A stretch of 24,087 nucleotides of DNA, taken from a virus. Lineage: Duplodnaviria; Heunggongvirae; Uroviricota; Caudoviricetes. Below the pieces are notes generated by a model. It was not told the origin of the DNA. It ran no database searches and saw only the letters and a list, made by a program, of their open reading frames with translations. Of the stretch, positions 11,726 to 15,374 are shown piece after piece. Numbering within the stretch: the stretch's first letter is position 1; each line of letters starts with the position of its first letter. The DNA lies in IMG/VR virus record IMGVR_UViG_2648501223_000008; one strand, 5' to 3'. Position numbers and translations under genes: made by a program.

Positions 11726-12544
11726 TTAAGCAGCCATCTGATGATATTTTTCCCTGAAGGCTGCCGGGGAGATATTCCCCAGACGAGAGTGACGACGCTG
11801 ACGATTGTAGAAAATCTCAATGTATTCCCGTATTACTGAGATGGCTTCATCCCGGTTATTAAAACGATAGTGGCTCAGGCTCTCATTTTTCAGCGTTCCC
11901 CAGAAGCTTTCCATCGGAGCGTTGTCGTAACAGTTACCTTTACGCGACATTGATGTTTTCAGACCAGACTGCTCCTGTATGACCCGGTAATCGTATGCGC
12001 AGTACTGTGAACCTCGATCAGAGTGGTGGATTAGCCCGGCAGGTGGGCGCTGGCTCCTGAGCGCCATAAACAGGGCTTTACCTGTCAGCTCTTTTGTCAT
12101 GCGCTCTCCCATGGCGTAGCCGACAATTTCGCACGTATAAACATCTTTGATGCCAGCGAGGTACAACCATCCCTCCTGTGTGGCAACATACGTCAGGTCC
12201 GCCACCCAGACCTGATTTGGTGCTGTAGGAGCGAACGTCTGGTTCAGCAGATTTGGCGCAACTGGCAGATTGTGGTTCGGGTTCGTAGTCGCTCTGAACT
12301 TGCGTTTCTGCTTACAGCGTAGCCTCAGCTCCTTACGAAGACGTGCCAGTCGGTCACGACCAACGATGATGCCATTCTCTGCCAGCTCCGTCTGGAGCCG
12401 CCGGGTTCCATATGTTTCGCGAGTGCGGATATGTGCCACCTTAATCTCCGGTTTTAGCCGCTCATCACTTTGTTTTCTGTCTGAGGGTTCATGCTGTACC
12501 CAGTTGTAATAACCGCTCCTGGATACACCAAATACCTGACACAT
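11726..12544 (-). CDS. IS600 OrfB transposase
   Basis: 272 aa, IS3-family DDE transposase. Confidence 0.9.
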   Translation of the reverse strand: MCQVFGVSRSGYYNWVQHEPSDRKQSDERLKPEIKVAHIRTRETYGTRRLQTELAENGIIVGRDRLARLRKELRLRCKQKRKFRATTNPNHNLPVAPNLLNQTFAPTAPNQVWVADLTYVATQEGWLYLAGIKDVYTCEIVGYAMGERMTKELTGKALFMALRSQRPPAGLIHHSDRGSQYCAYDYRVIQEQSGLKTSMSRKGNCYDNAPMESFWGTLKNESLSHYRFNNRDEAISVIREYIEIFYNRQRRHSRLGNISPAAFREKYHQMAA

Positions 12545-12579
12545 CGCTTCAATGGGAAATTGTTGTCGCCATTGTTCGA

Positions 12580-12882
12580 TTAACGCGTATTTTTCAGCGA
12601 CTCCTGTGCAAAATACGCTGTTGCTTTTTTTAATATATCTCGCTCAAGGCGAGCTTCATTTAACGCCTTACGCAGTTGCAGAATTTCAGATTCCAGTTCA
12701 GCCACCGTGCGGGAACCAGGAGTACCGAGCCCTTTTCTGGCGGCGGTAACCCATTGTCCTAAAGTGCCTTCAGGAAGAGATAATCGGGAAGCGCCTTCAC
12801 TGATCGAAAGTTGATTTTCAAGAACCGTTCTGACAGCTTCGGCTTTGAACTCTTTAGAGTAACGTTGGGTTTTTCTGCTCAT
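12580..12882 (-). CDS. IS600 OrfA (HTH/leucine-zipper transposase subunit)
   Basis: 100 aa MSRKTQRYSKEFKAEAVRTVLENQ...; slippery A7 near its 3' end. Confidence 0.9.
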   Translation of the reverse strand: MSRKTQRYSKEFKAEAVRTVLENQLSISEGASRLSLPEGTLGQWVTAARKGLGTPGSRTVAELESEILQLRKALNEARLERDILKKATAYFAQESLKNTR

Positions 12883-12946
12883 TATTAGCTCCTTCTGATG
12901 CCATTCTATTTCAGGAAGGAGTGTCCGTTAAACTCAGGCTACCTCA

Positions 12947-13594
12947 ATGTTCCATATATTTGCTGACCAGGATCCGTGCAAGTAACCCTGCACTGGCATA
13001 ACCGCGTTCGATCGGTTTAGGAGGAAGTGGTGCCTGAACGATGACATCACACCGGCTACAGGCCAGTTTGGGACGTATGGTTTCGATAACTTTAAAGGCG
13101 GTATTAATGATATCCAGTTGCTCTGAGATTGTTTCCCCCATTTCTTTCAGAACACCTCCACAGGCCGGGCAACTGGTTTCAGCAGGCAGAAGGCGATGTG
13201 TCTCCCGGGGAAGTTCTGCCGGCAGCGGTTTTCGTGAAGATTTTCGTCCCGGGGATTCAGGCTTACTGGCGATCGGGTTTTCTGACGGGGGACTGGTGTC
13301 AGGTGAATCTGTGACTGACGATGCATCTTCCAGAAGATTTCTGGCTGTGTTCAGCCGGTTTTCCAGTTCCGACAGTCGTTTTTCTGCCTGTCGGATCTGA
13401 TTTTCAAGCTTATGACGCTTTTTCTCTGAACTCTGGCCGAACAACATACGACGCAACCTGTCGAGTTGCGCTTTCAGCCGTTCAATTTCCTGCTCATAGC
13501 CCGCGACCTGACAGGCATACTGTCGAAGCCGACTCTGTTGCTTACGCAACATGGCTTTAAGCAGCTCAATATCATCGGGGAGTTCATTGTTCAT
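12947..13594 (-). pseudogene. IS66-family transposase TnpC, N-terminal fragment
   Basis: MNNELPDDIELLKAMLRKQQ... leucine zipper, CPACGG zinc-finger motif, ends ...LLARILVSKYMEH at the IS600 junction. Confidence 0.75.
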
Positions 13595-13941
13595 TCCCTT
13601 GTTTTATCACGGGTTATATCCGGATGCCAGGCCGTTCTGTCCGTTTGGGATGTTGCCACGCGATCCCCTCCAGTAGCATGGATAACTGAGCTGGCGTCAG
13701 GTGCACTTTCCCTTCCCGGGTCACCGGCCAGACGTTTGGCGAACAGGCATAACCCGTCACGATCGGCCCACAGTATTTTCACCATTTTGCCACTGCGGCC
13801 CCGGAAGACGAAGATATGCCCGGAGAACGGGTCATCTTTCAGCGTGTTCTGCACCTTCGAAGCCAGGCCATTGAAGCCACAACGCATATCTGTGATGCCA
13901 GCGATGATCCAGATTTTGGTACCGGTCGGCAGCGTTATCAT
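13591..13941 (-). pseudogene. IS66-family orf2 (TnpB), probably frameshifted
   Basis: N-terminus MITLPTGTKIWIIAGITDMRCGFNGLASKVQ...ILWADRDGLCLFAKRL is TnpB-like; after FAKRL the conserved continuation WPVTREGKVHLTPAQLSMLLEGIAWQHPKRTERPGIRI is in a different frame. Confidence 0.55.
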
Positions 13942-14612
13942 CGGATACCCCCTTTCATTTCGCGGATTAGCGCCCGTAACAGTTCCGGAGTGAGAGGGTC
14001 AAACAGTTTTACCACACCTGATTTAAGATGCAGCTCGCACCGTGGGACGTTTCCGGGAGCCCCCTCAGGGCGCTCATCATGCTTGTTACGCCAGAAGGGA
14101 TTTGTAACTGGTCTGGTCGGCTCCGGCGTATCAGTCAGTGCCACCGGGACAGGCATGCATTCCTGTATGTCATCATCGCTCAGTAAGCCGTCCTCGTACT
14201 GGCTTTTCCATTTAAACAGCAGGTTATCATTGATATCGTGTTCTCTGGCGATCCGGGCAACAACAGCCCCAGGCTGTAACGCCTGCTTAGCCAGACGGAC
14301 CTTAAATTCACGGCTATAGCTGGTTCGCCGTTCTTTTCGCCATGAGCCTTCTCTGATTTGAGGCTCTGTTAATTCCTTCTTTCTGTTGGCATAAAGGATG
14401 GCGTCAAGTTGAGCGAATGAAACTGAATCGGGCAATGGCCATGCGATACCGGATGCAAGAAATCGCTGAAAAAGCGTATGTATTGTGGAATGACTGAGAC
14501 CCAGACGCTGAGCGATGGCCCGGATGGTCAGTTTATCTTCAAATCTTAAACGCAGGGCATCAGGCAAATAAGAACGGAAGCAGGGAATATCTTTTGTTGT
14601 CTGGGAATTCAT
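13938..14612 (-). CDS. IS66-family accessory protein orf1 (TnpA-like, two HTH segments)
   Basis: 224 aa; C-terminal part RRTSYSREFKVRLAKQALQPGAVVARIAREHDINDNLLFKWKSQY resembles IS66 orf1. Confidence 0.6.
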   Translation of the reverse strand: MNSQTTKDIPCFRSYLPDALRLRFEDKLTIRAIAQRLGLSHSTIHTLFQRFLASGIAWPLPDSVSFAQLDAILYANRKKELTEPQIREGSWRKERRTSYSREFKVRLAKQALQPGAVVARIAREHDINDNLLFKWKSQYEDGLLSDDDIQECMPVPVALTDTPEPTRPVTNPFWRNKHDERPEGAPGNVPRCELHLKSGVVKLFDPLTPELLRALIREMKGGIR

Positions 14613-14710: not shown

Positions 14711-14926
14711 TTATTCACCTCTCGCAGCCTTACGCTTGTCTTCTCTGATTTTGAAGTACAGATTTGTCAGATAAGTCAGGAAGCCCAGAACCAGACTCCC
14801 CAGTACACCAATCGCAGCCCACTGTGACGGACTGACCTGATCAAGCCACTGTAAAAACCAGTAGCCAGCACTGCCTGCGGAGGTGCCGTAGGCAATGCCC
14901 GTTGAAATTTTGTCCATGGATTTCAT
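14711..14926 (-). CDS. Phage holin, S21/EssD-like pinholin with dual start
   Basis: 71 aa [71 protein letters not shown]; Met1 and Met4 dual-start motif; no endolysin follows, the IS66 end lies 16 bp downstream. Confidence 0.85.
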
Positions 14927-14985
14927 AGCCTCACCTCCGCAAATAACGGATGGCGTAGTTTTACACTGAGAAATGAAAGGGATTT

Positions 14986-15012
14986 GAAAAGAAAAAACCG
15001 CAAAAGCGGGCG
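14986..15012 (-). terminator. Weak terminator-like hairpin upstream of the holin gene
   Basis: minus strand ccgc-tttt-gcgg followed by ttttttctttt; short stem, so marginal. Confidence 0.3.
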
Positions 15013-15087
15013 AAACGATATATACAATAAGGAAAGCACTCTATCCAACAAACCACTCACAGTTAATCGGAATAAAAGCAGAGTGCT

Positions 15088-15158
15088 TATGAATGATCGC
15101 CTGCCCGAAGGTTAGTATTTCTGCACAGCAATTTTGCAAAAAAAAGCGATCATTCATA
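15088..15158. repeat. Perfect 13-bp inverted repeat with 45-bp spacer
   Basis: tatgaatgatcgc (15088-15100) and gcgatcattcata (15146-15158); lies between the tRNA cluster and the holin gene. Confidence 0.8.
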
Positions 15159-15218
15159 ACTTAAACGTCTTTCAGTCACTCCGGGATTTCCCATCATCGC
15201 AGACTGAAAGACTCTGAC

Positions 15219-15293
<75 letters not shown>

Positions 15294-15296
15294 ATA

Positions 15297-15372
<76 letters not shown>

Positions 15373-15374
15373 AC

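Follow-up and report, generated by a model that had tools for sequence, protein, structure and literature searches.

The minus strand of a 24,087-nucleotide (nt) stretch of Caudoviricetes DNA (IMG/VR record IMGVR_UViG_2648501223_000008; hereafter the window) encodes a genuine, conserved structured noncoding RNA (ncRNA) between a tRNA array and a P21-type holin gene. The RNA element is about 190 nt long, is composed of three consecutive hairpins (H1, H2, and H3), and is usually followed by a terminator, of which the window has an eroded form. Its structure, covariation, strand, conservation, and linkage to the tRNA genes, together with the conservation of the promoter in front of those genes and the recurrence of a terminator behind H3, are directly supported by the comparisons reported here. 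We regard the element as a credible new RNA family, phage-borne, located in the late leader, and of the tRNA-trailer type.

Hairpin architecture and conserved loops

A first-pass annotation of the window had drawn attention to a perfect 13-bp inverted repeat with a spacing of 45 bp, and had suggested a cis-regulatory RNA structure, a small RNA (sRNA), or the scar of excised cargo. The repeat exists, is perfect, and has the reported spacing, and it measures 14 bp instead of 13 (I1; arms 15087-15100 and 15146-15159, TTATGAATGATCGC and GCGATCATTCATAA, 14 nt each, 100% complementary, 45 nt apart). It represents the middle one of three hairpins and not the sole hairpin of the region. A second perfect repeat of 11 bp (I2; 15167-15177 and 15202-15212) underlies H1, and a third of 9 bp (I6; 15034-15042 and 15080-15088) underlies H3. 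Perfect inverted repeats reach at most 10 bp when the 292-nt region is shuffled 300 times with dinucleotides preserved. The minus strand of the 292 nt folds with a predicted energy of -91.2 kcal/mol, compared with -70.7 +/- 4.8 kcal/mol for shuffled sequences (z = -4.27; 0 of 200 as good), while the plus strand gives z = -2.46. The folding check proposed with the first-pass annotation therefore comes out well beyond shuffled sequences in the late sense.

H1 consists of an 11-bp lower stem, an asymmetric internal loop, and a 4-bp UGGG/CCCG stem closed by the loop AAAU. The internal loop places a 5' GAUGA (15198-15194) opposite GA (15181-15180). This tandem GA/GA loop is retained in 57 of the 59 distinct H1-bearing copies, with a column identity of 0.96, and the lower stem shows double changes in 6 of its 12 pairs. 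Numbered from 15218, the loop has every feature of the kink-turn (K-turn) sequence rules: a C20-G40 closing pair, the bulge G21-A22-U23, G24·A39, A25·G38, U26·G37, and G27-C36. Judged by sequence, it fits the consensus and would be K-turn-like.

In H2, an outer stem of 14-15 bp closes a junction that holds sub-hairpin H2a and a small CC/GG hairpin; compensatory changes occur in 6 of the 15 outer pairs. Of the 71 distinct copies, 64 share the same 9-nt apical loop of H2a, AAAUUGCUG (column identity 0.97). An extended alternative hairpin in H2 (CUGACC...GGUUCAG) was considered and rejected, as by-eye inspection of the alignment finds it in HK639-type copies only and not in those of the window type. 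H3 is built from a basal stem of 8-9 bp, an internal loop, and an upper stem of 10 bp. All 8 pairs of the basal stem show compensatory changes, and the G/U-rich 3' strand, GGUGGUUUGUUGGAU, is conserved above the 5' strand (0.83 vs 0.65). Column identity is 0.84 for stems and 0.30-0.58 for the remaining loops and linkers.

Compensatory changes and the RNA strand

Covariation was evaluated with two alignments. RNAalifold, applied to a MAFFT alignment of 16 diverse copies, returns 59 pairs, 14 of which carry compensatory changes. In this alignment, 95.9% of base-pair cells are paired, as against 41-47% when the partners are slid, and the covariation score of 0.227 compares with 0.157 for shuffled alignments, none of 500 reaching it. 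The covariance model (CM; R1) was likewise built from 16 diverse homologues. Among 71 distinct CM-aligned copies, 97.8% of the base-pair cells are paired, double changes are seen at 24 of the 59 pairs, and none of 500 controls reaches any of the five measures; this alignment is fitted to the model, and the MAFFT figures are the more conservative.

G·U pairs are frequent (128 cells, 13.6%), and pairing falls from 95.9% when the sequences are read in the sense direction to 83.6% in the antisense direction. Together these two observations assign the strand: the functional molecule is an RNA transcribed in the tRNA/late direction. The suggestion of a structured or small RNA in the late transcript is thus borne out by a fold beyond chance, by conservation, by compensatory changes, and by strand specificity.

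Linkage to the tRNA array, its promoter, and its terminator

The element lies directly behind a tRNA array that ends in tRNA-Gly(tcc) in about 130 of 156 copies. The distance from tRNA-Gly to H2 is 58-59 nt when H1 is present and 1-3 nt when it is missing, and copies without an intact tRNA-Gly usually retain its final 20 nt or so fused to H1. The downstream gene is variable: it encodes a P21-type holin in 92 copies and, in others, one of several different holin-like membrane proteins, which indicates that the element is tied to the tRNA array and not to any one holin. This association had been overlooked in the first-pass annotation. The element sits between the last tRNA of the array and the operon terminator, the position of a 3' external transcribed spacer (3'ETS).

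A GC-rich, stringent-type discriminator (CCTGCGCC) joins the promoter-like site of the array directly to the first tRNA. Across homologous loci, TTGCAR-17-TATTAT and the GC-rich discriminator are kept before tRNA-Met(cat) behind several unrelated upstream flanks. From these sequences, the array appears to be self-promoted, with its promoter only about 600 bp 5' of the holin gene. The whole looks like a phage 'moron', laid out as a sigma-70 promoter, tRNA-Met(cat), a variable tRNA, tRNA-Thr, tRNA-Gly, H1-H2-H3, and a terminator, and it looks to have been inserted between tR' and the lysis cassette. Its second tRNA is hypervariable in the anticodon among near-identical arrays (the window and L004-L165; L numbers are our labels for loci): we find Lys ttt, Arg tct, Phe aaa and gaa, Leu taa and cag, a 'stop' tta, and several variants to which no identity was assigned, while Met(cat), Thr(tgt), and Gly(tcc) do not vary across homologous arrays.

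The weak terminator-like hairpin reported behind the repeat is present as described: CCGC-UUUU-GCGG at 15009-14998, then a U-tract (U6CU4, 14997-14987). What had been missed is that it is the decayed form of a strong terminator. Sister copies have a 6-bp GCCCGC/GCGGGC hairpin of -13.7 kcal/mol, and near-identical E. coli copies form a series in which the 3' arm erodes into the U-tract, from GCGGGC to GCGGGU, GCGGUU (the window), and GCGUUU, with predicted energies running from -13.7 to -3.3 kcal/mol. Diverged copies carry other strong terminators, so that at least three non-homologous types occupy the position behind H3.

Distribution and modular organization

Of 5426 complete E. coli genomes, 530 (about 10%) carry the element, at 95-99% identity and always on the chromosome; no RefSeq feature lies under it in any of the 530. 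Four E. coli phages have it at 97-98% identity. The copy in phage HK639 is 76% identical, follows a remnant of the tRNA-Gly 3' end, and ends in a strong annotated terminator. In IMG/VR, each of two words of 16-18 nt taken from the H1 and H2 loops matches at least 120 contigs, and the two sets together give 97 distinct sequences. The conservation check suggested by the first-pass annotation is thereby answered in favor of the repeat, as the element that bears it is kept in hundreds of genomes with covarying stems.

The set of species-representative genomes contains an identical copy in one E. coli genome (L231). Among the matches listed, homologues in this set come only from Enterobacteriaceae (Escherichia, Shigella, Enterobacter, Phytobacter, and Yokenella); the scan used a degenerate 18-mer and gave mostly chance matches with at least six true homologues, and the taxonomic range is a lower bound.

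The hairpins behave as modules. In Salmonella prophage Fels-1 (NC_010391), the H1 and H2 modules are separated. An H1-only module is also seen about 450 nt 5' of an H2-H3 module, so that the hairpins can be parted by insertions, and some contigs have second copies that are partial or diverged (L151 2857-3015 and 2260-2411; L247 1-70). The leaders between Q and the holin gene in Fels-1, HK639, and L057 are mosaics of noncoding cassettes, among them the prophage sRNA STnc100. In Fels-1 (L290 1900-3700), the order is STnc100, a partial STnc100, H1, an open reading frame (ORF), H2, STnc100, and holin. In HK639, STnc100 stands immediately behind the terminator of the element (L001 2750-2960; STnc100 2754-2959), and in L057 (1313-1438), a partial STnc100 is fused to H1 where tRNA-Gly would be.

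Genomic context

The genes from Q to holin are all on the minus strand of the window, along which late transcription reads. In the late sense, the order is RusA, Q, a pR'-like promoter, a tR'-like terminator, the four tRNAs, the structured element, and the P21-type holin (Table 1). The stem of the tR'-like site is palindromic, and the terminator scan scored it on the plus strand. The predicted transcript from pR' to tR' (15634-15707, minus strand) shows weak similarity to IsrK and IsrJ, two sRNAs of Salmonella prophages (22.5-23 bits), as does the corresponding stretch of HK639 (L001 2255-2327; 34.6 bits); all of these scores are below threshold, the gathering score being 37.

The holin gene has a hairpin of its own. 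The sequence UGCGGAGGUG (14941-14932), which includes the holin Shine-Dalgarno (SD) sequence, pairs with CACCUCCGCA (14885-14876) in codons 14-17 of the holin ORF. From the pairing, this SD-sequestering hairpin probably serves translational control of a class II (P21-type) holin. About 100 bp past the holin stop (14711), insertion sequence (IS) elements of the IS66 and IS3 families begin and replace the remainder of the lysis cassette, indicating that the prophage is defective. Elsewhere in the window, the spacing of CssrB and CssrC is similar to that in S. flexneri 301. This spacing and the identical copy of the element in L231 suggest that the window derives from a defective lambdoid prophage of Shigella or E. 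coli.

Table 1. Coordinates of the structured element and of the other features of the window
Feature	Position	Strand	Basis or remarks
Whole conserved element	15031..15221	-	cmsearch 196.3 bits, E = 6.5e-54, model 1-190 of 190
Hairpin H1	15167..15212	-	I2; minimum free energy fold; covariation
Hairpin H2 (repeat of the first-pass annotation)	15087..15159	-	I1; fold; covariation
Sub-hairpin H2a	15142-15118	-	Apical loop AAAUUGCUG, 9 nt, 15134-15126
Hairpin H3	15035..15087	-	I6; fold; covariation
Single-stranded linker GUCAGA, 6 nt, from tRNA-Gly CCA end to H1	15213..15218	-	Sequence and fold
Eroded intrinsic terminator, CCGC-UUUU-GCGG then UUUUUUCUUUU	14987..15011	-	Sequence
Noncoding interval with the structured element	14927-15218	-	292 nt between tRNA-Gly and holin
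Sigma-70 promoter-like site, TTGCAA-17 nt-TATTAT	15538..15566	-	Promoter scan
tRNA array	15219..15528	-	ARAGORN; Rfam tRNA 44-73 bits
tRNA-Met(cat)	15528-15453	-	
'tRNA-Lys(ttt)'	15451-15375	-	ARAGORN; 44 bits against Rfam tRNA
tRNA-Thr(tgt)	15372-15297	-	
tRNA-Gly(tcc)	15293-15219	-	
RusA	16772..16407	-	
Antiterminator Q	16416..15727	-	PF06323
pR'-like late promoter, 3' of Q, TTGCAA-17-TATATT	15710..15738	-	Promoter scan; context only
tR'-like intrinsic terminator, AAAACCCGCCCACAAGCGGGUUUUUUGUG in late sense	15636..15659	-	Sequence read; context only
P21-type holin, 71 aa, MKSM dual start	14926..14711	-	PF04971 (P21 holin S)
Holin translation-initiation hairpin, separate from the element	14876..14941	-	10-bp perfect inverted repeat I3
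IS66-family ORFs (PF01527 / PF05717 / zf-IS66) and IS3-family element	11726-14612	-	
IS009 RNA	1088-1291	-	129 bits
CssrB RNA	2048-2227	-	230 bits
sok/CssrC of hok-sok locus	18429-18604	-	119 bits
tRNA-Ser(cga)	20747-20836	-	
tRNA-Asn(gtt)	21828-21903	+	

Possible function of the element

The model that we favor, and of which we are about half persuaded, is that the element closes a phage tRNA moron as its 3' trailer and gives rise to a stable RNA of about 200 nt that is recognized through two invariant loops. In a lysogen, polymerase from the tRNA promoter would transcribe the array and stop at the terminator past H3, so that the holin is not expressed. The tRNAs would then be cut out by RNase P and RNase E, leaving a discrete RNA of about 200 nt, with a stable hairpin a few nt from its 5' cut and the terminator hairpin at its 3' end; protected in this manner at both ends, the RNA should be long-lived. 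Upon induction, Q-modified polymerase would read through, and the same structure would become the 5' leader of the lysis mRNA. The processing, stability, termination efficiency, and any trans function of the element are inferred. The loops of H1 and H2a are nearly invariant, as opposed to the covarying stems and the variable remaining loops, which suggests a specific protein or RNA partner. This pattern suggests an sRNA-like or protein-binding RNA and not a mere spacer structure; a cis-regulatory role is possible.

A number of observations weigh against this model. The H2-H3 module stands directly behind small ORFs in L124, L146, and L152, an ORF splits H1 from H2 in Fels-1 and L151, and several copies are without H1; separable modules of this sort are equally expected of generic cis-acting hairpins that stabilize 3' or 5' ends. 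One lineage (L144, L151, and Fels-1) has a Watson-Crick pair in place of the second G·A of the H1 loop, and we know of no L7Ae-type K-turn-binding protein in E. coli or other enterobacteria. The terminator of the window has a 4-bp stem of about -6.6 kcal/mol, below the detection of the terminator scan, and a hairpin with a U-run within about 40 nt of H3 was detected in only 93 of 150 copies, with a crude detector. Finally, the compared sequences are related, so that the shuffle controls exaggerate significance; more weight should go to the slid-partner control and to the number of independent pair types.

The most serious alternative, possible if somewhat doubtful, is that the hairpins are RNA 'punctuation' that acts only in cis as stabilizer or processing hairpins, with no function in trans. 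Placed behind the upstream unit, whether tRNA array or small ORF, they would stop 3' exonucleases; once the tRNAs are excised, they would shield the lysis mRNA at its monophosphorylated 5' end; they may also act as RNase III sites; and, with the terminator, they would insulate the holin from the tRNA promoter. Such a role is consistent with the perfect 14-15-bp stem of H2 and with the placement of a strong hairpin, which is always found 1-9 nt past the CCA end of a tRNA or a few nt past a stop codon. It would also suit modules that are used apart and shuffled with other cassettes (Fels-1, L151, and L124) and non-homologous terminators that are exchanged at one position. However, the unpaired GAUGA/GA and AAAUUGCUG are conserved above the stems, for which simple stabilizers have no need, and a protective hairpin would need neither a junction as elaborate as that of H2 nor the conserved G/U-rich strand seen in H3. 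Even if the element were only a stabilizer or insulator, its recognition would aid prophage annotation and would explain how a constitutive tRNA promoter is placed 600 bp 5' of a holin gene.

More ambitious than the trailer model, and in our judgment improbable, is the proposal that the element represents an unrecognized class of phage ncRNA at the ends of lambdoid tRNA arrays that binds a specific host or phage factor via both loops. A tRNA-processing or tRNA-targeting nuclease, or another defense protein, would be a candidate for this factor. If this were true, phage tRNAs and their trailer would form a single cassette for counter-defense or host manipulation that is expressed from the prophage.

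A conserved structured domain that precedes a terminator and lies upstream of genes also resembles a riboswitch or attenuator, in which the domain would sense a signal and gate the terminator past H3 and read-through into the lysis genes. We consider this quite unlikely. The terminator lies 20-40 nt past H3 in a variable spacer, it is swapped for unrelated ones while H3 remains unchanged, and no Rfam leader or riboswitch model matches the element. Pairing between the terminator arm and the G-rich H3 strand, suspected at first, did not stand up to a permuted-arm control: with RNAduplex, the terminator 5' arm binds the upstream element no better than permuted arms do (7 variants, fractions 0.04-0.62). 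In an attenuator variant, a leader peptide of 10-13 codons in H2 would couple translation to termination. A mini-ORF of this length (15126-15158, minus strand) is indeed retained in most copies. Its product is MIAFFCKIAVQKY in the window, other copies have the form M[GS]A[AV]F[CR]KIAV, and GTG replaces the start codon in L124 and L146. Against a coding role, it has no SD sequence, the H2 stem encloses its AUG, and the few substitutions in it are non-synonymous, with no synonymous change among them. The alternative stops of the mini-ORF (UGA/UAA) are also compatible with RNA pairing.

It is highly unlikely that the element is a put-like processive antiterminator RNA, which would modify RNA polymerase to pass downstream terminators. 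HK639 is reportedly among the phages with put-like antiterminator RNAs, and in its late leader the stem-loops do stand just 5' of one or several terminators. Nevertheless, the element has about 190 nt and three hairpins and belongs to the late region of Q-encoding phages, and constitutive antitermination from the tRNA promoter would express the holin in lysogens.

Equally remote is the view that no RNA element exists and that the interval is a scar of excised cargo, a DNA-binding palindrome, or a small protein gene, for which one could cite the known lambdoid cargo slot, the DNA palindrome TTTTGCAAAA inside H2a, and two short ORFs in the interval (38 aa on the minus strand, 43 aa on the plus strand), annotated as 'hypothetical protein' in phage records ON470583 and ON470580. 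Compensatory changes and strand-specific G·U pairs contradict the scar and the palindrome. The same element is kept at the same tRNA-Gly junction across genera, with about 76% identity to HK639 and stems preserved by covariation, so the scar reading of the first-pass annotation has to be abandoned. In diverged copies, indels and stops disrupt the two annotated ORFs, which were rejected as protein genes; the description of these roughly 290 bp as noncoding holds. Two DNA-level sites were also considered, an internal promoter (TTGCAA-16-TACTAA) and a CRP-like half site inside H2; judged by eye, both match poorly and differ from lineage to lineage.

The sRNAs of the leader between Q and the lysis genes (PasD/STnc100, AgvB, AsxR, and StxS) are an active topic, and the element adds a further, widespread occupant. 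It is new to Rfam and to RefSeq annotation, its covariation support is unusually clean, and it offers a concrete, testable case of a trailer RNA of a phage tRNA operon. The late leader itself emerges as a mosaic of shuffling ncRNA cassettes, comprising tRNAs, STnc100, and the H1-H3 hairpins. Our alignment and covariance model could seed a new RNA family.

Comparison with known RNAs

None of the 4227 models of Rfam 15 matches 14927-15218 at gathering thresholds. With permissive filters (up to E = 10), the only match in the window interval is STnc540 (12.8 bits, E = 7.7), and on six diverged loci nothing was returned except a chance istR match on the terminator (26 bits, E = 0.12). The Rfam covariance search recommended in the first-pass annotation hence brings up no known family that accounts for the element. 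The conserved 14-16-mers of the element led to no relevant paper in a full-text literature search. We note that Peng et al. 2011, in screening Shigella for sRNAs, left out regions that contain tRNAs.

Individual candidates were rejected as well. STnc100/PasD (RF02076, 47 bits needed) has no match in the window even at E <= 10, while the same model scores 52-138 bits on the neighboring cassettes in HK639, L057, and Fels-1, which serves as a control for its power. For PasA-D of enteropathogenic E. coli (EPEC) E2348/69, with coordinates taken from Pearl Mizrahi 2021 (table S6), blastn with a word size of 7 in both directions gave only chance matches of <=18 nt, mostly GC-rich and terminator-like, and our covariance model found no match in the Pas loci (L167-L169). 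The IpeX region, that is, the DLP12 nmpC-essD spacer (NC_000913 572000-579000, L166), was negative by both blastn and the covariance model.

STnc100/PasD are Hfq-associated sRNAs of lambdoid prophages (Zhu et al. 2026, bioRxiv 10.64898/2026.05.13.724894). Like the element, they occupy the leader between Q and the lysis genes in the sense orientation, measure about 170-200 nt, and feature several hairpins and a terminal intrinsic terminator; STnc100/PasD adjoins the element in HK639 and interleaves with its modules in Fels-1. The element differs in that it shows no sequence or covariance-model similarity to them and is physically bound to the tRNA array.

The put RNAs are about 70 nt long, contain two stems, reside in early operons, and act on the zinc-binding domain of the RNA polymerase beta' subunit (PMC9378689). 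The element and the put RNAs of HK022 and, reportedly, HK639 are both cis-encoded structured RNAs of lambdoid phages upstream of terminators. Compared by features and not by sequence, the element lacks the put characteristics, with its 190 nt or so, three stems, and late-region location in Q-encoding phages; the terminator directly behind it seems to be selected for, a further difference from put.

The K-turn consensus is represented by the box C/D motif RUGAUGA...CUGA, with the 5' stem-loop of U4 snRNA as an example. H1 reads AUGAUGG...CGGA and displays the C-G-closed canonical stem, the GAU bulge, tandem G·A/A·G, U·G, and G-C, and this motif is invariant, in contrast to the covarying lower stem. 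It deviates from a standard K-turn by a bulged U and a G·U pair in the canonical stem beside the motif.

In niche, STnc100/PasD come nearest to the element; in logic, the nearest are trailer RNAs of tRNA operons, such as 3'ETS-leuZ, and the T4 species 1 and 2 RNAs. As judged by sequence and model, with the T4 RNAs compared by description, the element belongs to none of them. The T4 'species 1 and 2' RNAs (rnaC and rnaD) are small, stable, structured RNAs that are transcribed together with the phage tRNA cluster and processed from it. By description, they share with the element the location of a structured RNA beside a phage tRNA cluster, and they differ in coming from a virulent myovirus instead of a lambdoid prophage and in having no lysis genes behind them. 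The 3'ETS-leuZ of the glyW-cysT-leuZ operon is a chromosomal, Hfq-dependent sponge of about 50 nt that is essentially a terminator hairpin. Both it and the element extend from the last tRNA to the intrinsic terminator of the operon, and both would be expected to be released by tRNA processing. The phage-borne trailer, in contrast, is about 200 nt long and comprises three elaborate conserved hairpins.

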